DNA of 64,000 nt from Dictyostelium discoideum (Eukaryota): contig CM000151.3 in the NCBI GenBank assembly GCA_000004695.1, forward strand, positions 6,016,001 through 6,080,000, given 5' to 3'. Numbering within the stretch: the stretch's first letter is position 1; each line of letters opens with the position of its first letter. Of this stretch, positions 2,482-57,759 are shown piece after piece. A program made the position numbers and the translations under genes. Below the pieces are notes generated by a model. The model was given only the letters and a program-made list of their open reading frames with translations. It was not told the origin of the DNA and did not search any database.

Positions 2482-5400
2482 ATGGATAAATTTAAAGGTA
2501 AAATAAAAGGGATATCCCAACAAAGAGGGGAGCAAGGAAAATTTCAATTTGATTTTAAACTTATAAGTGTTGAAAATTTACCAGTTACTGGTAATTGTTT
2601 TGTATCATGGAAAAGAGGTACAAAATCAGCAAGTAACGGGAAAACAAAAGCTGTTACAATCAATTCAAATAAATCAGCATCATTTAATCATTCTTTTTCA
2701 ATGGTTACAACATTATATAAAGAAAAACCACCAAAGAAAACTTATGAATCAAAAACTATTGCAATTTCAATTAAAGATGTAATTATTATTTTATTATTAT
2801 TATTAGTTATTATTAATTATTATTACTATTATTATTATTATTTTTTATTCTTTTTTTATTTTTTTTTTTTTATTTTTTTTTATTTTAAACCATGTAAAAA
2901 TTAAAGATAAAAATAAAAAATTTACAACAGGATTATTTTTTTTTATATTTATTTTTATCTTTAATTTATTTTTATCTTTTTTTATTTATTTATTAATTTA
3001 TTAATTAATTTATTTATTTATTTATTAATTTTATAATAATAAAAAAATGATATATATATATTTATTTATTTATATAATTATTTTAGGAAAAAAATAAAAA
3101 ATCAATTGCAAAAACAATGATAGATTTAGCAGATTTTACAAATTTTAAAGATGAACAATTTAAATCAATTCAAATTAAACAAAAAAAGGGTGGACCAATT
3201 GTAATTGCAATGAATATAAAGAGTAAAGAGATGGAAATTAATCCAGATGATGAACCAGCAACAGAGACCGATTTAAATTCAAATGATGGTTCCGATGATG
3301 AAGATGGTGAAGATTTTGAACAAGATGAGGATAACTCATCATCGTCATTAAATACCAATAGTAAATATAGTAATACCAATAATATCACTGGTAGACTAAA
3401 TGATGATGATATTTTAGCACCAACAAATGGAGGTGGTGGTGCTTTTAAAAAGATGTCTGCACCAATTTCATCAACTAAATCTGAATCAATTTCATCCAAT
3501 TCATCCACACCAACTAAAACATCAACACCATCAACACCACCATCACATTCAGTTGAACCAACAACCACAGTGAAACCATTTAGTAATGATACAGAGGCAG
3601 AATTGAATGCATTACTCTCAAAACCATCATCTAAACCAAAAACTATAGCAGAACCTGTAAAATCAACACCAGTAGTATCATTATCATCTGCTTCCAACTA
3701 TAATCCAGGTAAAGATAAAGATTGGAAGAGAGAAGCTGATGATGCAAATCATAGAGTTCAACAATTGGAGAGACAAGTGGAAGTATTACAAAGAGATTTA
3801 AAAATGAATCAAAACATTGCAGCCAATGGTGGCGGTGGTGGTGTATCACAACAAGAGTTTGCGGATTTAAAGAAAAGATTTAGAGAGATTTCAGGTGATA
3901 ACATTGATTTAGAGGATAAAGTTAAGGAATTGGAAGAGAAATTAGCAAATGCATACAGACAACAACCAATCTCACAAGCGGCAGGCGGTGCAAGTAGACA
4001 ATTAACCGACCTCCAAGAACAAGTACGTCAAAAGGATGCATCTATTCAAGAGTTAAATATAAAGAATAGACGTTTGGAAAGAGATCTTCAAGATAAGGAT
4101 CAAGAGATTGCAGATCAAACTGAACAAGTTAAATACTATCAAGAACAAGTTAAATCTGCTCAATCCGCTGCACAAAAAGCTATTGCTGCCGCAGCTGCAG
4201 CATCCTCCTCATCAAGTGGACCATCAAATGAAGAGGCACAAGAGGAGATCGCATACTTAAAGAGAGAAATACAATTATTGAAGGATCAACAACAATCATC
4301 ATCGGTTGCAGTTGGTGGTGGTACATTAGAGTTAAAGAGAAGAATTCAAGATCTTACCAGAGAGGTTAAAGAGAAAGACGATGCATTGGCTAAATTGAAA
4401 TTGGGTGGATCACCAACATCAGCAGGTGGTTCATTATCATCAATTGCCGCACAAACCTCTAGTAATTTAACCATTACAAACCTTGAGAAACAAAACACAG
4501 AATTGAATAAAACATTATTAACACAACAACAAGAGATCGATAGATCAAAACAAGAGATTCAACAATTACAACAACAACTTTCACAAGCACAAAAGAAGAT
4601 CAATAGTGTTACCAATTCACCACCACCATCAGTCATTACCACAGAGGAACTATTGAAACGTGAAAATGGTGACCTCAAAGATAAAGTTGCCGCTCAACAT
4701 CACGAAATTAAACGTATTCAAGAGAAATATGATCAATTGAATTCAAGATTCAATGATGAAATCGAAGAGACCAACAATGTAGTCAATGAATTAAGACAAC
4801 GTGAAGAGGGCCTTGCTAGAAAGGTCGAAGAGTTAACTCAAGAGAATCAACAAATGGAACATAGATTGGCCAATGAAATGACATCCGCTTCAGCATTGAG
4901 TATGTCTGCAATGTCTGCACCAAGTAAATTTAGTTCACAAAATAGAGATAAAGATAGACAAGAAAGAGAAAATGCAGAGAGACAACTTGAACTCGCAAAA
5001 ACTGAATTATCACGTGAAAGAGAGAAAACCAAGAGATTCGATAGAGAACTTAAAGACTGCAGAGAACGTATTCGTCTCTTGGAACTTCAAGTTGAAGAAG
5101 GTGGTGGTTCAGTTATCAAACAAGAGAATCAAGATAAGGTTGAAAGTAGACTCATCGAACAATGTATTTACACTCAACCATTGACTTTTGTCGATGGTAC
5201 TGGTTCAGTTGCTTCATCATTATACGAACAACTCACTGATATTTGTGCATTCAGTCAAGAGAATGGTAAACTCTTTACCAAAGTTTATACAGCCCTTCAA
5301 CAAGCACTCGAAAGATCAATGTACAATTCAACAGATTTAGCCTATTGGTTATCAAATATTGCTGGTCTAATCCATTTAATTAAAGATGGTCCAAACAATA

Positions 5401-6287
5401 TAGACGATGATCGTGATCCAATTATCGATGGTATCCTCATCATGCAAAATAATAGTTTCTCTTCAACATCTCAAAGAAAAACTCCATCTCAAACTTTTTA
5501 TTATCAACTCGAAAACCTTTTAAGAGAATCCTACTCATTACTTTTACATAGTATTTATAACAAGTTAAGACCAAAATTAACAAAAATAATTAGTTTTGGT
5601 ACATGTATTTTAGATAAAAAAACGTAAGATTTTTTTTTAAAAAAAAAAAAAAAAAAAAACTTTATATTTATTTTAATATTTGAATTTATACTAATTTTTA
5701 TTTTATTTTATTTTTATTTTTTTGAAAGTAATAGATTTTCAGCAGCAGAAAATGATGCAGATATTAATAAGATTTGTAATATTTTACAAAAGTATATAAA
5801 TTTATTAAAGGATAAATTTATTTTTGATTCAATTATTCAACAATTCTTTTCACAAACTTTCCATTTCATTAGTTACACATTATTAAATGAAGTTTTAAAT
5901 GGTGAGAATTATTGTACACCAAGTTCAGGTTTCAAAATTAAATTAAGTTTATCTAAAATGGATGATTGGTTATCTTCATCAGAAGAAAGAGAATTACTTT
6001 TACCAGCAAGAGATCATTTTATGTCAATCATTGAAACTGCTAATCTTATGGTAATCGATAAATCAATTTTCACAGATTCTGATAGTGTTATCTCTGCTTT
6101 TGAAACTTTGAATATCCTCCAAATTAAAAAACTTTTAGAAATCTGGAAACCTGATAATCTCTCACCTGATCCAATTCCAAAGAAAATCATTGCAAGTTTA
6201 AATCAACAATTGGACTTAAATACTCATCAAAGAAATCTTGTAGTTGATCCAACAATTTTAATTGATGTTCAACCAAAACTCTCTTAA
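2482..6287 (+). CDS. NT-C2 domain / long coiled-coil / C-terminal DIL (dilute) domain protein, 3 exons
   Basis: Exons about 2482-2778 (donor gtaatt), 3087-5623 (acceptor ttttag; donor gtaaga) and 5729-6287 (acceptor aaag; intron 105 nt keeps the frame). Exon 1 gives an NT-C2-like N-terminus (KFQFDFKLISVENLP...CFVSWKRG). Exon 2 is heptad-rich coiled coil. Exons 2 and 3 encode a DIL-like domain (LAYWLSNIAGLIHL...SGFKIKLSLSKMDDWL). Frames checked across both junctions. Confidence 0.75.
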
Positions 6288-6498: not shown

Positions 6499-7089
6499 TT
6501 ATTTTGTTGGAATATTCATACGAATTAATTTTGCAGGATTACCAGCAATAATAGAATTATCAGGGAATGATTTGGTGACAACAGAACCAGCACCAACAAT
6601 AACGTTATTTCCTAAAGTGACACCAGGTAAAATTATAACATTACCACCACCCCAAAAATTATCACCAATTGTAATTCCTTTTGTAAAATTTTCATCTGAT
6701 CCGCCAATTCTTTCAGATGGTTCGAATGGGTGTGTAGCTGTATATAATTGAGAGTTTGGACCAATCATTGCGCCATATCCAATTCTAATTGGACCATCAT
6801 CATTTAATATGCAATTATGATTAATAAAGAACTTATCTCCAACATGAATATTAACTCCATAACTAACTTTAATACCTTCACGAACAATCACAATTTCACC
6901 TGTTGAACCAAATAACTGTTTAATAATTTCTGGTCCTTTTTTACCATCATCTTCATCACTACCAATTAAATTATTAAATTGTTTATTTAATCTTCTTGCA
7001 CGTAGTCTTAATTGATCTAATTCTGGATCTTCAAATCTATATCTTAATCCTGTCACCATTTTCTCTCTTTCTGTTAATACCGGTTCCAT
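6499..7089 (-). CDS. Maltose/galactoside O-acetyltransferase (Maa/LacA family, left-handed beta-helix hexapeptide repeats), intronless
   Basis: 196-aa ORF ([11 protein letters not shown]...[40 protein letters not shown]...[25 protein letters not shown]) colinear with bacterial Maa. Confidence 0.9.
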
Positions 7090-7574
7090 TTTATATTTAT
7101 TATTATTATTATTAAATTATTATTATTTTTTTTTTTTTTAACCAGTTTGCACTAAAAAAATTTTTTTTTTTTTTTTAAAAAAATAAAAATAAAAATAAAA
7201 ACAAAACGAAAATTTGTAAATATCTGAAAAACAAAAAAAAAAAAAACAATAAAATTTCAAAAATATCGTTACCACGCATAAATTAATTTCAGTAAAAGGC
7301 ATTATAATTTATTGTAACTGTTTATGTAATTATTTTATTATTAAACTTTTTTATTATTATTTTAATTTTGATTTTTTTTTTTTATAGTTTTTTTTTTTGT
7401 TTTTCAGATATTTCTTTTTTTATTTTTATTTTTATTTTTATTGTTATTTTTTAAAAAAAAAAAAAAAAATTTATTTTAAAAGTTGAAATTTCGTTATTTT
7501 TTTAAAAAAAAAAACTGTAAATTGTAAGCTTAAACTAAACATTTTTGGTAATATTATTTTAATAATTAATTTGA

Positions 7575-7630
<56 letters not shown>

Positions 7631-7715
7631 AATTTTTATTGATAAAAAACAAAAACGAAAAAGTTAAAACGAAAAAAAAAAAAAACAATTTCGTTTTTAA
7701 TTCATTATTTTCAAA

Positions 7716-10322
<2,607 letters not shown>

Positions 10323-10329
10323 ATATTAA

Positions 10330-10374
<45 letters not shown>

Positions 10375-10462
10375 ATAATAATAATAAATAAATTAATAAA
10401 TAAATAAATAAATGAATAATAAAAAGAAGTAATAATTAATTATTTTTTAAATTTTATTTTTT

Positions 10463-10864
10463 TTATTTTTGGAAATTTTCTGTTGTTAAATTTTTAAATG
10501 AAATTGGAGTAAATGGTTTTTCACAAAATTTACAATACCATCTTTTATTATCATGTTTAAACGATGGTAATTCATTACATTTCTTACATCTAACATTTGA
10601 TTGTAAATGTTCAATTTGAATTTTATTATTATTATTATTTTTAAGTGGTTCAATTATTTTTTTTTGGTCTTTTGTTTTTTTAATTATAATTGGATTTGAA
10701 TTTGTTAATTTATTTTTTTTTTCTTTTACATTTGATATTTTTTCTTGAGAATTTGAATTAATATTTAATGGTTTTTGGTTTAATAAAAATTCAATTTTAA
10801 TTTTATAATTATCATTATTAAAATTATTATTGTTGTTTGAATTATTAAAATTTGGGTTTATCAT
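10463..10864 (-). CDS. Small protein with C-terminal C4 zinc-ribbon (C-x2-C-x14-C-x2-C, then EKPFTPISF); lineage-specific, paralog of 15763-16185
   Basis: 133-aa ORF with N-rich N-terminus. C-terminus RCKKCNELPSFKHDNKRWYCKFCEKPFTPISF is nearly identical in spacing to the paralog (CKKCNCPPSFRHDKKRWWCGKCEKPFTPISF). Confidence 0.55.
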   Translation of the reverse strand: MINPNFNNSNNNNNFNNDNYKIKIEFLLNQKPLNINSNSQEKISNVKEKKNKLTNSNPIIIKKTKDQKKIIEPLKNNNNNKIQIEHLQSNVRCKKCNELPSFKHDNKRWYCKFCEKPFTPISFKNLTTENFQK

Positions 10865-10951
10865 TTTAAATTTTTAACGATGTTAAGAAATAATAACAAG
10901 GATTATTTTTTTTTGATTATTAAAGGAAATTATTTAAATTAATTGTAAAAG

Positions 10952-10994
<43 letters not shown>

Positions 10995-11640
10995 ATTGCA
11001 CACTTTAGTTTTAAATTTAAAAAAAAAAACTAAAAAAAAAGAAAATAAAATAACAAAATTGGAAAAAAAAAAAACAGGATTCAAATTTGATCGATAAAAA
11101 TGGAAATCTATTGGTAGTTTTTAATCATTAACATTGTTATTAGAATTAAAAACAAAACATCACACCAATTTTTTAATTTTTTTTTTTTTTTTAATTACCT
11201 TAAAGGTTTTATTTATTTTTTTTTTAAAAAAAAAAATAAAAAAAAAAGTGGTGATTTTAATATATAATTTTTTAATTACCCAAATATAAAAAAACCTTTT
11301 ATTATTGGTTGTTTTTATTATACCTCACTACAATGAGTTAATTTGATTTTGGCTAGTCAGTTTTTCTTTGTGTGAAAAAAAAAAATAAAAAAATAAAAAA
11401 AAAATAAATATTAATATTTACTAACTGATTTAACAAAAATGAATATAGTAAAAAAAAAAAAAAAAAAAAAAATTATTTAGTATATACCCCACATTTAAAA
11501 CTATTTTTTTTTTTTTACAAAATAAAACTTGACCAACACAAATTTTATAAAAGTTAGCATAATAAAAAAAATAATAATTCCAATGATTAAATTTTTAATT
11601 TAAATAAAAATAAAAAAAATTATAGTAATATTAAAAATTA

Positions 11641-29705: not shown

Positions 29706-31953
29706 ATGACAATATGTCAACCAATTCCATGTGGTGGATCCTATTTTTGGAATATAGTTGAACCATATAAAAATGATGAATATGTATTTGTAATGCAAAG
29801 TTATAATGGACCATTTAGGTGGAAATCAGAAGAATATAGAATCGTTTTAATGTGTGGTCCAAATTCAAATGGCTACATTATAGCCACATCAACTTTATTT
29901 AGTGAAATCTTTTCAAATTGGGAGATTATCACAACAATTTATAAAGAAAAGATTGAAAAAACAGGTCTTAGTCATTTCTCTGACACTTTTTTAATACAAC
30001 TATATAAGAAATTAGCTAAAAAATTATCACAAGTTAATTCTCCAATCTTTACAGAAGAGGAACAAAATATTCAACCACCACCACAACCACAACTACCACC
30101 TCAACAACCACCACCACCACCTCAAATACAAGAATCACAACCAATCCAAGAACAAATTGAACAAATTATATTACCAACGACATTAGAATTTCCAAAAAGT
30201 AGAGATAATGAAGAAATTAAAATTATTAAAAAAAGAAAAATCGTGGCATTATTTAAAACATTATATAGAGTTGATGCAATGACAATTATTGAAAGGGATT
30301 ATAGTTCATCAAGTCAATGGATAGAATGGGTTGATGAGTCTACAGGAATGAGACCAATTCATGTCGCTGTCGAAAGAATGAATGTTCAATTGGTTAAATA
30401 TTTAATTGAACGTAAAGCAGATGTAAATATAAAAGATAATCAAGGTTGGTCACCATTACATTTCTCATCATTTGCTGGTAGTTTAGATATTTGTCAAATT
30501 CTATTAGATCAAGGTAATGCTGCTGTTTTAACAATTTCAAAAGATGGTACATTACCATTACATTATTTAATTAGACATTGTTATTCAATAAATGTACCAT
30601 CTTCATCATCAAATAGTAATAATAATAAAGATAATAATAATAATAATTATAAAGATAATAATAAGTTTAATAGTAATTTATCAATTAATTATAATAATGG
30701 TGGAGATTGTAATAATTTAACATTAAAACAAAAACAGGAAAGTAATAATAAATTATTTTCAATTTTATCATTATTACTTAGTAAAGGTACACCAATAAAT
30801 GCAAAAACTATACGTGGTGAAACTGCATTACATCGTGCATGTTATTATGGTTCAGCACAGTCTGTTAAATTTTTACATCAAAATGGTGCAGATGTAAATG
30901 TTCAAAATTCACGTGGTGAAACACCACTTTATTTCGCAGTTGTAAGTCGTCAACGTGAGATTGTAAAACTTTTAATCGAATATGGTAGTGATGTTAATAT
31001 TGGTGGTGAACGTTCTGCTTTAAAAGCTGCTGATAAAACAAACCAAAATGAAATTTATTATTTTTTAGCTGGTTTTTCTGATGAAAAATCTGTATCTGAT
31101 TCAAAAAGAGATTATTATAATAATAATGATGAAAATGATAGCAATAATAATAATAATAATTATAATGATGAAAATGATAATATTCATAGACATAATCAAA
31201 ATAATCAAGGTAATAATCAAAATCATTCAATGGATTGTTGTTCAAAGATTGAAAATGGTCAAGAATGTAGTTGTGGTGATTTAAGTAATACAGCACATCC
31301 ATTCTATCCACATGTTTTCGTTTTCATTGATTTTCCTGCTGGTACAACTCATTGCTCCTATTGTAAATACTTATTATGGGGTATTAGAAAACAAGGTTTC
31401 CAATGTGAAGTTTGCTCATACATTGTTCATTCAAGATGTAAAAGACAAGCAACATTAACAAATACTTGTGGTATACCTGATTCAAAAGAAACTATTTCTT
31501 CTTCAGTTGTAAATGATTTCTTAACAAAATCAAGAGACCAAAATATTAATAATAATAATGAGGAAGAAGGTGTAGAAGTAGTAGAAGAAGATCATCATCA
31601 TAATAACATCAATAATAACATCAATAATAATAATAAAAGATCACCACAAAGAAAACAAACAATAAGACAACCATTACATAAACAAAATATTAATAGAAAA
31701 AGATTAGAAAGTTTATATAATCATTTCATAACATTGGATAAAGAAAAGAAAGGTTCAATTTTAAAAAAAGATTTTGAAAAATGTTTAGGTCCAATCATTA
31801 ATAGCTCAGAATCATTATCAAATGCTTTATTTTTAGGTTTTAATCCAAAAAAACATGATAAAATGAGTTATGTTGAATTTTTAACTGGTGTTTCTGTATT
31901 ACAAAATTCAACTTTTGATAAACAAATTCAATGTAATTTATATAATTTTTATG

Positions 31954-31985
<32 letters not shown>

Positions 31986-32491
31986 TTAATTTATTAATTT
32001 TATTATTATTATAGTTTCATTTAAAATGCTAGCAGGTGAAAAAGGTTATATTACAGTGGAAGAGTTTTTATCAATTTTAGAATCAATCTATTCTTCATTA
32101 ACAAATTTAACTATTGTAACATGTAATCCACAAGCATTTCTAAAAAGATTATTCCCTGAATTTTCATTTAGTTATCAAAGAAAACAAAAACTATTATTAC
32201 AACAACAACAACAATTACAGCAGCAACAACAACAACAACAACAACAGCAGCAACAAAAATCATCATGGTCCTCAACTTCACCTTCACCTTCATCAACTAC
32301 TAATTCTCTTAGAAATAGTTTAAGACTATCAAGAGCTATAGATAATAATAATAATCATAATAATCATAACCATAATCATAATAATAGTAATATTAACAAT
32401 GAAGATGATTTAAATCTTGATTCAGATTCAGACTCTGATTCATTCCCAACACCATCAACCTCTCCACTTTTATTTAAAATTGGTATAAAAA

Positions 32492-32531
<40 letters not shown>

Positions 32532-32545
32532 GCAACAACAACAGC

Positions 32546-32583
<38 letters not shown>

Positions 32584-34557
32584 GAACAACAGCAACAACA
32601 ACAACAAGAAAACCAACAAATAATAAAAGATGAGAATGAAACAGTAGAAAATCAATCACAAGAGATAAAGCAAAAAGAAGATGAAAATCAAAAAGAAGTT
32701 GAAAATCAAAAACAAGATTTAAAAAATCAAAAAGAAGAAAAAGAAGAAGAGGAAGAAATAAAGGAACAAAGAAAATTTGAAACCAAAAATGATAATTTTG
32801 TTCAAGTTAATACAAAGAAATCAGTTAGAGGTAGTATATTTTTTGCACCATTAGATTCACATGAAAAAATTAATAATATTTCAAGTATTGGTAATCATAG
32901 ATCTTTAATTAGAAATAGTAGTAGTAGTGTATTAGATAATAATAGTAATAATAGTAATAATAATAATAATAATAAAAACAATAATGAATCTACAGCAACA
33001 CCAAATACAACTAATTCAACAACACCAATTACATCAGCAACAACATCAACATCATCATCTCCATCATCATCATATAAAAGTCAATCATTACCAGATTTAC
33101 CATCACATATACCAAAAACACCAACAAAATCATCAATTATAAATAATAATAATAATACATCAAAAACAATAACAACTAAATCATCATCATCATTTGAAAA
33201 TGGTTTAAATAATAGTGGAATTGATAATAATTATATTAGTAAAAAAGAAAAAATTGAAAATGATAAAGTTTTTCAATTAAATGGTAGAATTTATTTTAAA
33301 GAATTTAAACAAGCATTATCAGATAATTTATATTTTGTAAAGAGTTTAGGTTTAGTTAATCATTATGAAAATCCATTGATTAGAGAAACTGAGGGTAATG
33401 ATGGTCTATTGGTTAATCATTCATCGAATTGGGTAACATCACAAGGTAAAGATGTATCAATTGGTCATATAAATTGGGAGTTAATTCAATATATTATGAT
33501 TGGTATTAGAAGGTCTGCAGGTGAAGCCATCGTACTAACCAATAGAGCAACATTGAAGCCTAAAGATTTTGAAATGGTTGTTGAATTCAAATATGATGGT
33601 TGGACATTCAAAGATCATTACCCATTAGCATTCAAAAAGATTAGAGAAAGATTAGAAATTGATCCAAAGATGTTTATGTTTTCCTTGGGTCCTGAAAGAG
33701 TGTTTGGTAATTTACTATTAGGCAATCTTTCAGTGTTGAGTGAAATGAACTCTAGTGGTAAAAGTGGCAGTGTTTTCTTTAGATCGACAGAGGGTGATTA
33801 TTTAATTAAAACCATTCCAACACATGAAGAATCAATATTGAAAGCGGTTTTACCAACTTATGTACAGCATTTACAAAAATATCCAAATAGTTTATTAATA
33901 AAGATATTGGGTTGTTATACACTTCAAATAAAGGGTAAAGCAGAGATGAAATTCTTGGTCATGAATAACCTTTTCTTCACTCCATTACCATTGTCTGAGA
34001 AGTACGATTTGAAAGGCTCTGTCATCAATAGAAAAGTTGACAAGAATGATTTACTCTTACCTGATATCGCTTTAAAAGATCAAGAATTTCATAGAATACT
34101 CGATATTGGCCCAGAGTTTAAAGCACCATTATTAGAACAAATCGAACATGATACAATGTTTTTAGAATCTCATAATATCTGTGATTATAGTTTATTGGTT
34201 GGCATTCATACTATAGATGAAAATTCACCATTGGCTCTTTCGGATGATGATGATCCTGATCTTTCAAATGTGGGTGGTGTTAAAAGAGACACTTGGAAAG
34301 TATTGGAAGAAGAATTCTTTAAAAAAACTAGTGGTAAAATCTCTTTATTTCAAAAGAATTTTGGTGGTATCCTTTCAAAAAATAAAAAAGAAGTTTATTT
34401 CATCGCTATCATCGATACTTTTACCGCTTGGGATTGGTGGAAAAAGTCTGAACGTGCCTTAAAATTCTTGGGTAATGATTTAGATAAAATATCTGCTGTT
34501 AATCCAACTGATTATCGAAAAAGATTTCAACATTATGTTTCAAAAATTGTTCAATAA
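29706..34557 (+). CDS. Large multidomain phosphatidylinositol-phosphate kinase: N-terminal unknown domain, ankyrin repeats, C1 (DAG/phorbol-ester-type) zinc finger, NCS-like EF-hand pair, poly-Q/N linkers, C-terminal PIP5K catalytic domain; 2 exons
   Basis: Exon 1 is 29706-31932 (donor gtaatt at 31933). Intron of 82 nt contains poly(A)30. Exon 2 is 32015-34557. Ankyrin motifs (PIHVAVERMNVQLVKYLIERKADVNIKDNQGWSPLHF...). C1 domain (HPFYPHVFVFIDFPAGTTHCSYCKYLLWGIRKQGFQCEVCSYIVHSRCK). EF-hand region spans the splice (FDKQIQ|FSFKMLAGEKGYITVEEF). PIPK motifs (GKSGSVFF, DYSLLVGIH, IIDTFTAWDW). The alternative donor at 31982 is rejected by frame. Confidence 0.8.
32488..32630. repeat. (CAA)n/(CAG) coding microsatellite (poly-Gln about 45) in PIPK exon 2
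   Basis: Direct inspection. Confidence 0.9.
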
Positions 34558-35212: not shown

Positions 35213-35875
35213 ATGTGTGGAATTAGTGGTTGGGTAGATTGGTCAAATAAAAATGATTTATTAAAAGAAGTTGCAATAATTCAAAGAATGAATCAAAGTG
35301 TTTATCATAGAGGACCAGAGGAAGGTGGAATTTGGAAATCAAGTGATGCATTATTTGGACATCGTAGATTATGTGTTATTGATGCAGCAGGTGGTAAACA
35401 ACCAATGATTTTTAAAAAAGGTGATAAATCAATTGTATTATGTTTTAATGGGGAATTATATAATTTTCAAGATTTAAGAAATGAATTAATTTCTTTGGGT
35501 AATCAATTTAAAAGTCATTCTGATACTGAAGTAATTCTAATGTCATATATTCAATGGGGTGAACAATGTGTTAAAAAGTTTAACGGAATGTTTGCAGTTG
35601 CAATCTTTGATGAAGAAAACCAAAAATTATTCCTTGCAAGAGATCATCTTGGTGTTAAACCATTATTCTATTGTACTAGAGGTGATTCCATTCTTTTTGG
35701 TTCAGAAATGAAAGTTTTACTAGCAAATAATAAATTGGTTAAAGCAGAAGTTGATAAAGATGGTATTGCTCAATTATTTTATTTGGGTGCATTTCGTACA
35801 CCAGATATTGGTTGTATATTTAAAGATATACATGAAGTATCACCTGGACATTCAATTACATTTAATAAATCATTA

Positions 35876-35939
<64 letters not shown>

Positions 35940-37150
35940 TCTCTTTCACTACAACTGGTCAAAAAGAATATTGGAATTTAAAATGTTTACCACATACTGA
36001 TGATGTTCATCAAACAAGTAAAAAACTTAGAGGATTAATTGAAGGTGCACTTTCAAGACAATTAATATCAGATGTACCAATTACATTTTTATTATCTGGT
36101 GGTTTATCATCTAGTGTATTGGTTTCATTGGCATCATCACTATCGAAATCATCATTTCCTGAACCATGTCCAATTAATGAAACTAGTATTTTGAAAACTT
36201 TTTCATGTGAATTTGAAAATGATGATAAAGATTATAAAGAAGAAATTGAAGGACCAAAAAAACCATGGGTTGAAAAGGTTGTTAAAAATGTTCAAAGTAA
36301 TCATATTTCCACACAATGTAATGTTGATAATTTAATAAATACAATTTCATTACCAATGAAAGCAAGAGATCTTCCAAGTTTTTCAAAATGGGAAACACCA
36401 TTAAGACTAATGCTAAACAAAGTAAAAGATCATGGTGTGGTTTTAATCTCTGATGAAGGTTCTGATGAAATATTCTCTGGTTATGATTGGTTCAAAAAAC
36501 AATCTTCTTTAAATATGGATAGATTACCATGGATTGGCAATATCTATAATAATATCAATCATTTCTTAAAGGATCAAATATTAGAACAAGTTGATTTTAT
36601 GAAATATGGTGAGCAAGTCTATCAAAAAGCCATTAAAAACATGCCAGTGCTACAAGGTGAGGATGAAACTCAAGTAAAACAAAGAGTTGCCTCTTGGTTA
36701 TTTATTAAATACTTTTTAGTATATATGCTTGAACGTGAAGATAGAACATCAATGTCTCAATCATTAGAAGTTCGTGTACCTTATTGTGATTATAATTTGG
36801 TTGAATATTGTTGGAACATACCATACAATATGAAATCAATTGATGATATTGAAAAAGGTATTTTACGTCGTTCAATGGCTCAACAATTACCAAAAGATAT
36901 TTTATATCATACAAAGGATAATTTCCCATTATCAGTTAAAGATACAAATTTCTTTATTTCAGTTTGTAGTCTATTGGAAATTGAATTAAATAATCCATCC
37001 TCACCAATTTTAAATTTTATTAAAAAGGAATCAATTATGGAAATTATTAAAAATAAATATGATGAAAAATATCAAACCTATCAAAATCAAAGTGTTATTG
37101 AACATTTACTTCAAGTAAATACATGGATCATTGATTATAATGTTAAATTT

Positions 37151-37156
<6 letters not shown>
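35213..37156 (+). CDS. Asparagine synthetase-like glutamine amidotransferase of the bacterial AsnO/LtsA type (class II Ntn Cys-2 GATase plus PP-loop ATP pyrophosphatase), intronless
   Basis: 647-aa ORF. Opens MCGISGWVDW (like Bacillus AsnO MCGITGWVDF) and carries the SGGLSSS PP-loop. Host-like AT-rich codons and a poly-N19 insert argue it is a native gene, not contamination. Confidence 0.85.
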
Positions 37157-40869: not shown

Positions 40870-42918
40870 CTAAACAGTTTGAATCTTTTTAAATTTTGAT
40901 CTTGATGGATCATATTTTTTTCCAGTTCTTCTAGTTCTATCTTCTTCATAGGAAGCATAATTACCTTCATGAACGATTACTTGACCATCACCTTCAAATG
41001 CAATAATATGAGTACAAAGACGATCTAAAAAGTAACGATCATGACTAATGATAACAGCACAACCTGGATAATCTTCAATGGCAGTTTCTAAATTACGTAA
41101 TACATCAACATCCAAATCATTGGTAGGTTCATCCAATAATAAAAGATTACAACCTCTTTTAATCATTTTTGCAATATGAACACGATTACGTTCACCACCA
41201 GATAGAGAGCCAATGAATTTATCTTGTTCTGGACCACGGAAATTGAATTGAGAGATGTATTCTCTTACGTGAATTTTATAATTGTCACCCATAACTACAT
41301 CATCGGAGCCATCGGCAACCTCTTCATAGATGGTTTTCTCGTCGTCCATTGAAGCACGTGATTGTGCGACGAACCCCATACGAACGGTTTCACCCACTCT
41401 AATTGAACCGGTCAATGGTTTCAATTCACCAGTCATGATTCTAAAAAGTGTTGATTTACCTGTACCATTTGCACCAATGATACCAACGATTGAACCAGGT
41501 TCAATATCGATATTTAAATTTTTAAATAAAGTTCTACCATCAAATTCCATACTAATATCTTTGGCTTCAAATACTACTCTACCTAAACGTGGACAAGGTG
41601 GAATTGAAATTCTACCTGGTTCTCTGAATTTCTCTGGTGCACTTGCCACCAATTCATTGTATTTATCAATACGAACTTTATTCTTTTTAGTTTGAGCTTT
41701 AACACCACCTTTAAGATACTCCAATTCCTTTTTAATGGCTTTCTTTCTTCCCTCCTCCTTTTTATTCTCCATTGAGAGACGTTGCTCCTTTTGTAATAAC
41801 CAACCCGAGTAATTTCCTTTGAATGGTATGAGTGAACCACGATCAACCTCTAAAATCCAATTGGCGACATTATCTAAAAAGTAACGGTCATGAGTGATTG
41901 CAACCACTGTACCACGGTAGTCATGCAAGAAACGTTCTAACCATGCAACACTTTCTGCATCCAAATGATTTGTTGGTTCATCCAATAGTAATACATCAGG
42001 ATTTGAAATTAGTAAACGTGCCAATGCAACTCTACGTCTTTCACCACCTGACAATGTTGTTACATTACTATCACTTGGTGGGCAATTTAATGCGTCGATT
42101 GCAATTGCAATCTTTCTCTTTAAATCCCAAAGTCTTTCTTCCTCAATAATATCAGCCAATTCATCTCTTCTCTTTTCCAATTGTTTTCTTTCTTGTTTAG
42201 TTAACTCTTCATCTTCATCCTCTAATCTTTCCTCGATCTCTTCATGTTCATCCAATATCTCCTTCTTTTCTGCTACACCATCGAAAATATTCTCCTCAAC
42301 AGTTTTATCTGCATCCAACTCTGGTTCTTGATGAAGGAATCCAACTGTTAATCCTTTTGAATATAATACTTGTCCATCATGTTCCGTATCTTCTTGTGAT
42401 AAAATACGCATAAATGATGATTTACCACTACCATTGGTACCAAGTAAACCAATCTTTGATCCTTCTAAAAATGAAAGTGATATATCTTTTAATAAAATTT
42501 TACCATCATCTAATCTTTTATTAACTCCAACCATTGATAATATAACTTTATCTGTTTGATGTTTATCTGCTCCTGTTTTTTTTTCATTTCCTTTTTTTTT
42601 TGCTTTTTTAAAAAAATAAATTAATATTTAAAATTTTAAAATATTATATATTATATGTATGTGTGAGTGATTTTTAATAAATATTTACTTACTTGAATAT
42701 TGTTGAATTAAACCATATGATAAATTTTTGTTTAATTTTAAATTTTCATTTTTATTATTATTATTATTTAATTGAATTGAATTAACTATACTTTCTTTAT
42801 TATTTAAAGTAGTAATTGAAGTTATTGATTTATTTACATTTGTAATATAACAATATCCATTCTTTGTTGAATTAAGCAAAGATAATGGTTTTCTTAATTT
42901 TGAAAATGATGAAATCAT
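40870..42918 (-). CDS. ABCF-family ATPase of bacterial EttA (YjjK) type, two ABC domains and no TMD, with an N-terminal presequence-like exon; 2 exons
   Basis: Exon 1 is 42918-42693 (MISSFSKLRKPLSLLNS... basic and hydroxylated with no acidic residues, donor gtaagt). Intron is 120 nt. Exon 2 is 42572-40870. Exon 2 has blocks near-identical to E. coli EttA (LLLDEPTNHLDAESVAWLERFLHDYRGTVVAITHDRYFLDNVANWILEVDRG, LSGGERRRVALARLL, LLLDEPTNDLD). Homology starts before the first Met of exon 2 (KVILSMVGV aligns with EttA FVYTMHRV), which supports the splice. Possibly abcF4. Confidence 0.85.
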
Positions 42919-52093: not shown

Positions 52094-54054
52094 TTAAAAA
52101 AAGGAAACTAATAATAAAATTAAAGAGATTGTGAGGGTATTAACTAAAATTTTTGATGATGAGGATGTTGTTTTTTCAATGTTATCACTTGGTATTTGGG
52201 TAGTTGGTTGAGAGGTTCCTTGAATTGATGTTGGATTTGGAGTTGTTTCAACATTTACAACATTACAATCTGGTCCGGTGAATGGTACTTTACAATAAAG
52301 TTTACCATTGAAACAATAGGAATTTTCATTTACTTTATCACATTCATCGGTTTTTGATGGAGTTTGAGTTGGAGAAGTTGTTGAAAAGCCTGATGTAGAG
52401 GAAAAGGTTGTTGAAGATGAAGATGATGATGATGATGAAGATGAGGTAAATGTTGTTGTTGTTGATGATGATAAAGAGGAGGAGGTTGAAGATACAAATG
52501 ATGTGGTTGTAGAAATTTGACCAGATGATGCATTTGGTAGGTTGGTATTACAGTTCATAATTTTACCAATGTCACAAGAGATATGTCTACCAATACAGGT
52601 AATTTTACGCCATGCAGAACATGTAACTGATTGTTCACCATTTTTAGTACCACATTCAAAAAATGGATTGGCACAATAGGTATCACCTTGACCATGACAT
52701 TCAATCTTTTCACTACCTTGGTTTGTAATTTCTAAAATTCCTTTAATTGGATTAAATGAGCATACAACTTGACTATCATCACTTGATGAGCTTTCCCATG
52801 AATCAGAGTCTGAGCCAGAGTTTGAAGATTCTGAAGATGACCAGTCTGAAGATGACCAATCAGAAGATGACCAGTCACTTGAGCTACCGTTACATCCATT
52901 TGAGGAGTCAGTTGAGGAACCACTTGATGATGATTCAGATGATGTACTATTGCTTGATGATGATTCGGATGAAGAACCAATACTTGATGATTCGGATGAT
53001 GTACTAATGCTTGATGATGATGATTCAGATGACGATGAGCTTGGTCCACTAATAATAAATTTAACATTATTTTCAGTGTAAACTACTTGATAACCGGTTG
53101 TAATATGAGTCTCACTAGATGATTCAACAGAGTAAACATTAATAACTCTGAATAATGTTGAATTAATTGCTAATGAATTGAAATTAATAATATTAAATTC
53201 ATTATCGATATTCAATAAATTAGAGTTAACAAAGACTATCAATGTTGAGTTATTAATATTTAATTCATCACTAATATTAATGGTTGAGAAATCTGATGGT
53301 TTTTTAATGTAAATGATAATTTTTGATTCATTTTCGTCGTCTTGTAAAAGGGTACCATTGATATTAATGGTTGAGATTCTATTTGAGCTACCAATTGTAC
53401 CATAGTTATAAATTTTAATTGATTCTAAAGTACCATTACCAAGAACAGTTGTACTATATCCAAGTAATAATGGTAAATGAGATTTAATTCTTATTGGTTG
53501 GCCAGATGCAATTGAAGTTAAATCTAATTGACCTAAACCTAAAATAAATGAATTTGCTTCTACAATAATTTCATTTTTAGGAATATAAGTGGAGTTTAAT
53601 TTTGAATTTTGAATTTCAATCATACCCAATGTAATATTTTCGCTTTCGAATGATAAAACAGCATTATTATATAAATAGATATTGGTTGTTTCTAATCCTT
53701 TTCCATTTGATTTTCCCACTGAGAATATACCACCTTCAAAGTTAATAGCAGTTGTTGGAGCAAATGAATGAATTGATGAATCAAAACAAAAAATTGAATC
53801 TTTAAATGAAATTCCTGATCCACCAGTTATTTCAGCACCGATGCCACATAAATGATATGATTCAATTGAAACCAATGAACCTTCATCAACTTTTAAAGTT
53901 GGCTCAAAACCTCCATAGAATGTGGTTGTTTCTGAACCAATTGAAACAAATGATGAACCTTTAATTAAAACAGTGCTTGATCTATTATTTAATACAAATG
54001 AATTTCTACTAATAAAGTTTGATTGATCAATTATTAATTCATTCTAAATTTAAA

Positions 54055-55470: not shown

Positions 55471-57759
<2,289 letters not shown>

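Follow-up and report, generated by a model that had tools for sequence, protein, structure and literature searches.

Can a single gene join ankyrin repeats, a C1 zinc finger, EF-hands and a phosphatidylinositol phosphate kinase (PIPK), and if so, do diacylglycerol (DAG) and Ca2+ switch the kinase directly? The question arises from a 64,000-nucleotide stretch of Dictyostelium discoideum DNA (contig CM000151.3, positions 6,016,001 to 6,080,000; hereafter the window), whose plus strand carries such a gene at 29706..34557. An initial annotation described the product as an enzyme that makes phosphatidylinositol 4,5-bisphosphate, PI(4,5)P2, and is gated by both messengers. The ankyrin repeats, the C1 domain, an EF-hand domain like that of neuronal calcium sensor (NCS) proteins and the PIPK domain do stand in one protein, and this architecture is conserved and unlike that of animal or yeast PIPKs. 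We judge it fairly likely that the protein is a phosphatidylinositol 4-phosphate (PI4P) 5-kinase regulated by its N-terminal modules, with its Ca2+ ligands gone and its C1 loop remodelled, within a lineage of EF-hand/PIPK fusions (EF-PIPKs).

Reading frame and comparison between species indicate that the locus is one real two-exon gene. Two long plus-strand open reading frames (ORFs), at 29706-31985 and 32026-34557, are separated by a gap of 40 nt. Once 82 nt (GTAATT...TATAG, 31933..32014, 4.9% GC) are removed, the two frames run on across a phase-1 junction as a 4770-nt coding sequence of 1589 codons and a TAA stop, with splice sites CAAT/GTAATT (donor 31933) and TATAG/TTTCA (acceptor AG ending at 32014). 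Exon 1 (29706..31932) thereby encodes amino acids 1-742 and supplies the first base of codon 743, and exon 2 (32015..34557) runs from the remainder of that codon through the stop. The spliced junction reads ...FDKQIQ/FSFKMLAGEKGY..., and the annotated orthologue of D. citrinum (P0001, ACTFIU_008240) contains the junction peptide KQIQFSFKMLAGEKGY letter for letter. This single intron, which falls between the second and third EF-hands (EF2 and EF3), has a counterpart at the same codon and phase in D. citrinum (L002 8216-8302, 87 nt), and a GTAAGT...TTAG intron occupies the same phase-1 position in D. purpureum (L001 about 8846-8915), whose locus has one additional intron before EF1. Orthologues start MTIC.. 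and finish ..IVQ/E at points matching the ends of the window protein. The splice proposed in the initial annotation proved exact to the base; the single protein also stood, at 1589 rather than 1590 residues.

The intron has features of its own. It carries a run of 29 A (window 31952-31981), and its retention would extend exon 1 as ..CNLYNFYEKKKKKKKKK before a stop, giving a 759-aa protein with ankyrin repeats, C1, EF1 and EF2 and no kinase. Neither the spliced protein nor either ORF product had an exact match in a collection of 15 billion sequences. Homology searches returned no D. discoideum orthologue; other D. discoideum proteins were present in the same collection.

The modules follow one another as N-terminal domain, ankyrin repeats, C1, NCS-like EF1-EF3, linker, EF4 and PIPK. 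The conserved N-terminal domain (29706..30041, aa 1-112) comprises five beta strands followed by two helices. Five Pfam ankyrin models match aa 218-432 of the spliced protein with E values of 1e-20 to 3e-31 (Ank_2 at 3e-31; Ank at 4e-29 in four stretches), and the alignment of the window protein with seven orthologues (eight sequences) reveals five repeats and a cap by eye. The at least four repeats first counted are therefore borne out as five plus a cap, forming a domain at 30318..31070 (aa 205-455) that is interrupted by an Asn/Ser low-complexity insert (30585-30740, aa 294-345). The domain search suggested at the outset recovered ankyrin, C1_1 and PIP5K, and found EF-hand_7 only below its cutoff. 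Between EF3 and EF4 lies a linker (32173..33252, aa 796-1155) made of polyQ, polyN, Ser/Thr-rich and acidic stretches, varying by species in length and sequence. Linkers are much shorter in other dictyostelid and protostelid orthologues than in the window protein. The linker's polyglutamine tract (window 32400-32700, about 50 Q at aa about 903-950) is CAA-rich and strongly skewed in composition; D. citrinum has mixed Q/P/S/L sequence in its place, so the tract evolves fast.

The kinase looks catalytically competent. Its domain spans 33373..34554 (aa 1196-1589), with a Pfam envelope at 33727-34548: PIP5K (PF01504) matches aa 1314-1587 at 255 bits and E 1e-75, covering profile positions 4-288 of 288. 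Among structures in the PDB, the closest are PIP4K2B (3e-33) and zebrafish PIP5K1A (5e-32). The G-loop GKSGS (33757-33771, aa 1324), LIKTI with the catalytic Lys (33802-33816, aa 1339), DLKGS (34006-34020, aa 1407), CDYSLL (34180-34197, aa 1465) and AIIDTF (34405-34422, aa 1540) are all present. A kinase-dead pseudoenzyme was considered and ruled out, all catalytic motifs being intact. CDYSLL, the counterpart of MDYSLL, has Cys in its first position in every amoebozoan member examined (dictyostelids, protostelids and Pyxidicula), with CDFSLL in Pelomyxa, whereas I, L or M stands there in PIPKs of alveolates, fungi, animals and plants; the Cys is a possible clade signature.

Substrate preference can be predicted from one residue. 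In PIPKs the activation loop holds a specificity switch, Glu in PI4P 5-kinases and Ala in phosphatidylinositol 5-phosphate (PI5P) 4-kinases; Kunz et al. reportedly identified this residue as a determinant of specificity. By motif alignment the window protein has Glu1555 (34450-34452) at this position, as do all amoebozoan and alveolate EF-PIPKs examined and also fungal and plant enzymes, with Ala in PIP4K2. Because of Glu1555 and the activity reported for the Plasmodium relative PfPIP5K/NCS, conversion of PI4P to PI(4,5)P2 is our best prediction, and we hold it to be likely. The intact motifs and Glu1555 in this way sustain the initial annotation's PI(4,5)P2-synthesising kinase as a predicted activity.

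The EF-hand domain resembles calcium sensors in overall sequence and departs from them in its loops. Residues 655-795 (31668..32172, spanning the intron) match KChIP2 (3e-9), NCS-1/frequenin (5e-9) and calcineurin B (7e-6) in the PDB by phmmer, over three EF units; Pfam EF-hand_7 and EF-hand_6 reach 19-20 bits, below their cutoffs. What had been described as a recoverin-like EF-hand pair straddling the intron is NCS-like and does span the intron, but consists of three units and the remnant of a fourth. NCS proteins proper (recoverin, frequenin) are marked by a myristoylation signal at the N-terminus and an EF1 disabled by CPxG; here the domain is internal, from aa 655 onwards, and its EF1 lacks CPxG, which makes it NCS-like and the protein not an NCS protein. 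The remnant, EF4 (33253..33372, aa 1156-1195), adjoins the kinase, with loop FQLNGRIYFKEF at 33271-33306 followed by ..FVKSLGLV; the segment LNGRIYFKEFKQAL..FVKSLGLV is kept in all orthologues of the alignment. At the EF4 position P0135 has a canonical EF-hand (Pfam EF-hand_1 28.6 bits, above threshold), as do 18 further representatives, among them P0227, whose four canonical EF-hands are contiguous with its kinase and align to EF2, EF3 and EF4 of the window protein. These alignments indicate that the protein holds a four-EF-hand NCS-like module in which a 360-residue low-complexity insert parts EF3 from EF4.

All four EF loops fail the canonical pattern for Ca2+ binding (ligands at 1, 3, 5 and 12, with Gly6). 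The EF1 loop DKEKKGSILKKD (31737-31772) has Lys5; the EF2 loop NPKKHDKMSYVE (31842-31877) has Lys3, His5 and Asp6; the EF3 loop, -AGEKGYITVEE (32029-32064), is one residue short and has no Asp1; and the EF4 loop VFQLNGRIYFKE begins with Val1. Elsewhere the pattern survives. EF2 reads DSNxDGKMDLxD in six orthologues from the other three dictyostelid groups, some orthologues in other dictyostelids keep a canonical EF3, and Tieghemostelium lacteum, with EF3 DKNNNGYLTIGE, reaches Pfam EF scores of 45-53 bits against 19-20 in the window. D. purpureum is intermediate, its EF2 reading DSNKDDKLNLND. Direct Ca2+ gating, which the initial annotation predicted, has probably been lost in this species, as the four loops without canonical ligands and the low Pfam scores suggest. 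Many Ca2+-free EF-hands of NCS-type proteins act as structural or regulatory parts.

The C1 zinc finger (31311..31469, aa 536-588) has kept its zinc ligands and altered one of its two loops. Pfam C1_1 matches aa 536-585 at 42.5 bits against a cutoff of 26.5, and the domain matches the DAG-responsive C1 domains of protein kinase C (PKC) beta, gamma, theta and delta at 1e-15 to 1e-8, compared with 8e-3 for the atypical C1 of B-Raf. All eight Zn ligands are kept in the pattern H-x13-C-x2-C-x13-C-x2-C-x4-H-x2-C-x9-C, which we compared with the typical H-x12-C-x2-C-x13/14-C-x2-C-x4-H-x2-C-x7-C; the first gap is x13 in the window and x12 in other dictyostelids, and the last is x9 in all dictyostelids. 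In the window and D. citrinum the beta1-2 loop reads FPAGTTHC, one residue longer, with Pro11 lost and His for Trp13. The loop reads F-K/R-x-P-T/V/N-W-C in the other dictyostelid groups; that of D. purpureum, FNTPTHC, keeps Pro11 and the normal spacing but also has His13. The beta3-4 loop, YLLWGIRKQG, retains Leu20, Trp22, Gly23, Ile24 and Gln27. Just upstream, at window 31239-31286 (aa 512-527), the Cys-rich insert DCCSKIENGQECSCGD is confined to the window and D. citrinum and absent from other dictyostelids.

Classical DAG or phorbol-ester binding by this C1 is doubtful. Mutagenesis of C1B from PKC-delta is said to have established that Pro11 and the hydrophobic rim are important for the binding of phorbol/DAG and for insertion into membranes. 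The initial annotation had called the domain a canonical DAG/phorbol C1, and part of that description holds: the Zn ligands and Trp22, Gly23 and Gln27 are there, and Pro11 and the hydrophobic residue at 13 are not. The DAG-binding residues that it had named as decisive are likewise divided, lost from the beta1-2 loop and kept in the beta3-4 loop. Dictyostelium phosphoinositides are ether-linked plasmanylinositols (PMC5813501), so phospholipase C (PLC) would release alkyl-acyl-glycerol and not classical DAG. Together these features leave DAG gating in this species uncertain.

Strong purifying selection acts on every folded module. The window gene and its D. citrinum orthologue are 90% identical over aligned codons, with an overall dS of 0.34, and comparing them gives a dN/dS of 0 in C1 and in EF4 (dN = 0 in both), 0-0.014 in the ankyrin repeats outside their insert, 0.027 in the PIPK domain, 0.055 in the N-terminal domain and 0.10 in EF1-EF3. 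Linkers range from 0.19 to 0.66, with 0.36 and 77% identity for the one at aa 796-1155. Values of 0-0.1 rule out that the C1 and EF modules are decaying, and they argue for continued function of the remodelled C1 and of EF-hands that have lost their ligands. The simplest view would make them structural or regulatory elements together with a module for membrane contact.

The architecture extends across the dictyostelids and into other Amoebozoa. There are seven full-length orthologues, from D. citrinum, T. lacteum, Acytostelium subglobosum (two: SAMD00019534_059890 and _114780), Cavenderia fasciculata and two eukprot models, and the full architecture occurs in all four major dictyostelid groups, D. 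purpureum and T. lacteum included. Public labels call these proteins 'hypothetical protein', 'ankyrin repeat-containing protein' (T. lacteum, C. fasciculata) or 'putative PI4P 5-kinase'. The search for the same design in other Amoebozoa, which the initial annotation had recommended, succeeded: one Trinity transcript of Protostelium nocturnum (P0180) encodes the N-terminal domain, ankyrin repeats, C1, EF-hands and PIPK in a single ORF. Planoprotostelium fungivorum (PRP85099.1) has the N-terminal domain, ankyrin repeats, EF-hands and PIPK and no Pfam C1; Pyxidicula operculata has ankyrin repeats, EF-hands and PIPK; and two further assemblies have ankyrin repeats, C1 and PIPK.

Several orthologue models depart from the common plan. 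The D. purpureum locus (GL871180.1, L001 6706-11179) encodes all modules, but its model DICPUDRAFT_37984 (P0131, 348 aa, PIPK only) is truncated; the missing N-terminal domain, ankyrin repeats, C1 and EF-hands lie in ORFs 6706-8580, 8646-8894 and 8897-11179, where no gene has been called. In P0005 (eukprot gene8352-10258_t) the final ~190 aa are a phosphoribosyltransferase (PF00156) where the last PIPK segment is expected, and part of the kinase N-lobe is also absent; the cause is probably a fused or mis-spliced gene model and not the true acquisition of a domain. P0007 (C. fasciculata) has low-complexity sequence in place of ankyrin repeats 1-3, and P0006, the second A. subglobosum paralogue, has no N-terminal domain, departures that may reflect either faulty annotation or true loss. 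Two Logan assemblies with ankyrin repeats and PIPK (P0182 aa 467-538, P0254 aa 678-766) have weak matches of PTB/IRS-like and GRAM-like type that lie after the ankyrin/C1 region and before the kinase, which suggests further domain shuffling in this PIPK lineage.

By domain order and kinase score, the protein belongs to a known kind, the EF-hand/NCS-PIPK fusions, to which the ankyrin-C1 extension is an amoebozoan novelty. An EF4-plus-PIPK profile was run exhaustively with HMMER against 1.84 billion representatives, and the best 150 of 14,268 matches were examined. The top non-dictyostelid matches are amoebozoan, and the 150 include EF-PIPKs of Plasmodium coatneyi, P. berghei, P. ovale, Besnoitia besnoiti and Gymnodinium, the Plasmodium, Besnoitia and Gymnodinium proteins scoring 283-320 bits; the EF1-EF3 domain is present in 77 of the 142 new representatives among them. 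A kinase-only profile ranks dictyostelids highest (553-661 bits, with the window at 610.7), followed by other amoebozoan ankyrin/EF forms (280-406) and alveolate EF-PIPKs (about 298-320), then fungal its3-type kinases (about 205-254), insect PIP4K2 (about 202-207) and plant PIP5K (185). A eukprot GPCR-PIPK, representing type IV in a set that did not contain RpkA itself, is second-lowest at 187.7 bits.

These proteins widen a family that was thought narrower. PfPIP5K/NCS of P. falciparum (PF3D7_0110600) has PI4P 5-kinase activity that is stimulated by Arf1 (PMC3823935; see also PMC10543664), and EF-PIPK relatives are known from Toxoplasma (PI4P5KA) and ciliates (PIPK1) (PMC3823935, PMC10543664). 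The EF-hand PIPK group has been called 'alveolate-specific' (PMC3823935) and the pairing of the two domains 'unique to Apicomplexa' (PMC10543664); the phylogenomic survey behind those claims, Brown and Auger 2011, does not mention Dictyostelium. The amoebozoan proteins contradict both statements. The initial annotation's premise that PIP kinases are normally just a catalytic core is not borne out by the published EF-hand/NCS-PIP5K fusions (PMC3823935, PMC10543664), whose kinase domains are among the closest relatives here. Conservation and kinase scores point to a design that is old and conserved in slime moulds, with a kinase related to that of Plasmodium PIP5K/NCS.

How might such an enzyme work? 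It would make PI(4,5)P2 from PI4P, with the ankyrin and N-terminal domains binding partner proteins, C1 adding membrane contact, and the EF domain regulating the kinase from within the molecule by packing on it through EF4. EF2/EF3 together with a typical C1 could link activity to Ca2+ and to a DAG-like lipid in the ancestral enzyme and in that of species like T. lacteum. The D. discoideum/D. citrinum lineage, which lacks the Ca2+ ligands and has a remodelled C1 loop, would keep the modules in structural or regulatory roles that need no Ca2+, and lipid gating, if any, would be unlike classical DAG/phorbol binding.

Other readings of the locus differ over how many genes it holds and which lipid the kinase phosphorylates. 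Two separate genes would place an ankyrin/C1 protein ending at the TAA of 31983-31985 beside a PIPK starting at the ATG of 32026. Each ORF is indeed open by itself, the second begins with ATG, the D. purpureum annotation holds a PIPK-only model (P0131), and a 38-mer spanning the junction had 0 matches in metagenome contigs. However, the first ATG of ORF 2 sits within the EF3 unit, so that this model would halve a folded domain, cutting it between EF2 and EF3, and the GT..AG intron has the same position and phase in three species. The 40-nt gap is also far shorter than the AT-rich spacers of at least 0.6 kb that flank the gene (seen as low GC upstream of 29706 and downstream of 34557), five other species have annotated fused proteins, the single Protostelium transcript holds every domain, and the D. 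purpureum model is visibly truncated, its upstream ORFs encoding the missing parts. We regard two genes as very improbable. Accepting one gene, the kinase could still be a type II-like PI5P 4-kinase or have some other specificity, and here several points weigh against a PI4P 5-kinase: the top PDB match is PIP4K2B at 3e-33, with PIP5K1A equally similar, the C-terminal ISAVNP..YRKRF segment is type II-like, and in a neighbour-joining tree insect PIP4K2 joins the EF-PIPKs of amoebozoans and alveolates with 88% bootstrap, fungal and plant enzymes standing apart. That tree was built on crude distances and has no metazoan type I sequence, the window protein shares its specificity residue, Glu, with type I, fungal and plant enzymes where PIP4K2 has Ala, and PI4P is the reported substrate of the related PfPIP5K/NCS (PMC3823935, PMC10543664). 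A type II-like activity is accordingly a poor bet, if a better one than two genes.

A further choice concerns gating. In D. discoideum itself, the enzyme could be switched on directly by DAG and Ca2+ as a feed-forward node after PLC. C1_1 exceeds its Pfam threshold and its top PDB matches are the DAG-responsive C1 domains of PKCs; Trp22, Gly23 and Gln27 are kept and the EF domain is NCS-like; and other dictyostelids have a typical C1, canonical EF2 and in some cases canonical EF3, which makes such gating plausible for the ancestor. Against it stand four EF loops that lack the ligand pattern at 1, 3, 5 and 12, a C1 with an insertion in its beta1-2 loop, Pro11 lost and His for Trp13, and ether-linked inositol lipids from which the PLC product is not classical DAG (PMC5813501). 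The feed-forward node of the initial annotation thus suits the ancestral form, and T. lacteum, better than this species, for which we think it unlikely. A little less unlikely, and offered tentatively, is a broader version: the EF-PIPK fusion would be an ancient Amoebozoa-Alveolata module, turned in Eumycetozoa into a coincidence detector, with C1 sensing the PLC glyceride and the EF-hands Ca2+, and later rewired. PI(4,5)P2 would then be remade where PLC is active, and the loop change in D. discoideum and D. citrinum might suit alkyl-acyl-glycerol.

We favour a PI4P 5-kinase regulated by N-terminal modules that probably no longer bind Ca2+, and the considerations that count against it should be set beside those on specificity above. 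Non-canonical EF-hands at times still bind Ca2+ or Mg2+, and the retained Trp22, Gly23 and Gln27 mean that C1 may bind lipid. Statements about the function of the window protein are drawn from sequence. The window EF domain scores only 25-30 bits against alveolate EF domains and about 40 bits against NCS-1/KChIP; being nearer to free NCS proteins than to its alveolate counterparts, it leaves a single origin of the fusion unproven. We found no paper on a dictyostelid ankyrin/C1/EF PIPK, and curated D. discoideum annotation or mutant data may exist.

Chemotaxis, phagocytosis and macropinocytosis in Dictyostelium rely centrally on a supply of PI(4,5)P2, and the PIPKs studied there so far are PikI, PIPkinA and RpkA. 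The gene described here is a fourth, uncharacterised one, and its architecture suggests regulated, local PI(4,5)P2 synthesis. It is not a new class of system. As part of a genetically tractable amoeba it offers a model for the control of a kinase by sensor domains, relevant to the essential Plasmodium and Toxoplasma enzymes. T. lacteum, with canonical sensors, and D. discoideum, with degenerate ones, form a natural experiment in which second-messenger gating was probably lost and the domains were kept.

The neighbourhood of the gene is ordinary housekeeping. The window is AT-rich, with a GC content of 12-13% between genes against about 30% in exons, and synteny of the neighbourhood extends to D. 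citrinum and, in looser form, to D. purpureum. The kinase gene lies on chromosome 2 between a Leg1-like gene and an asparagine synthase gene. The latter, which is intron-less, lies downstream (35213-37156, plus strand; GATase_7 and Asn_synthase, with internal polyAsn) and is also found downstream in D. citrinum (L002 11469-13373). An abcF3 exon on the minus strand (40873-42534) matches exactly the cluster that holds AbcF3 of D. discoideum AX4. A DEAD helicase, a Kelch protein, a mannosidase-like glycosyl hydrolase of family 2, a SpoU methylase, a DUF2838 protein and PDS5 are the other neighbours. Pfam gave no match at E <= 1e-5 for three long ORFs, at 3117-5627 (plus), 52094-53875 (minus) and 55471-57759 (minus), which encode 836, 593 and 762 aa, and a search of the window for tRNA genes found none.

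Comparison with known systems places the protein between its own orthologues and a wider set of sensor-kinase pairings. Dictyostelid and protostelid orthologues have the same module order, and the group-4 species share the intron; outside the D. discoideum/D. citrinum/D. purpureum lineage they differ in having a typical C1 loop, a canonical EF2 and, in some, a canonical EF3. PfPIP5K/NCS and the alveolate group likewise carry an NCS-like EF domain N-terminal to the PIPK on a single polypeptide; they too have long spacers of low complexity, and the Glu in their activation loop is type-I-like. Unlike the window protein, alveolate EF-PIPKs lack the N-terminal beta/alpha domain, the ankyrin repeats and C1; the EF loops of the window protein are degenerate, and at 25-30 bits the two sets of EF domains show no more than a generic likeness.

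Looser parallels come from other lipid kinases. Type I diacylglycerol kinases (DGK alpha, beta and gamma) combine a recoverin-homology/EF-hand unit with C1, and type IV enzymes (DGK zeta and iota) combine C1 with ankyrin repeats. The modular logic is alike, but the catalytic domain (DAGK) is unrelated, the domain order is different and the substrate is DAG, so the likeness is one of analogy only. An NCS-type EF-hand protein also acts on a phosphoinositide kinase where NCS-1/Frq1 regulates PI4KIII-beta/Pik1 (PMC10543664, PMC6563779). That pairing is non-covalent and joins a myristoylated sensor to a PI 4-kinase of another fold, whereas in the window protein the sensor-like domain is covalently fused, and to the next kinase in the pathway. 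Within Dictyostelium, PikI (DDB_G0267588), PIPkinA and RpkA belong to the same PIPK catalytic family and are distinct genes with distinct architectures; identity of the window gene with DDB_G0267588 was considered and rejected, as that is PikI, another gene. RpkA, a GPCR-PIPK, provides a precedent for the joining of signalling modules to PIPK domains in amoebae (PMC3969243, PMC10399982, PMC3206951).

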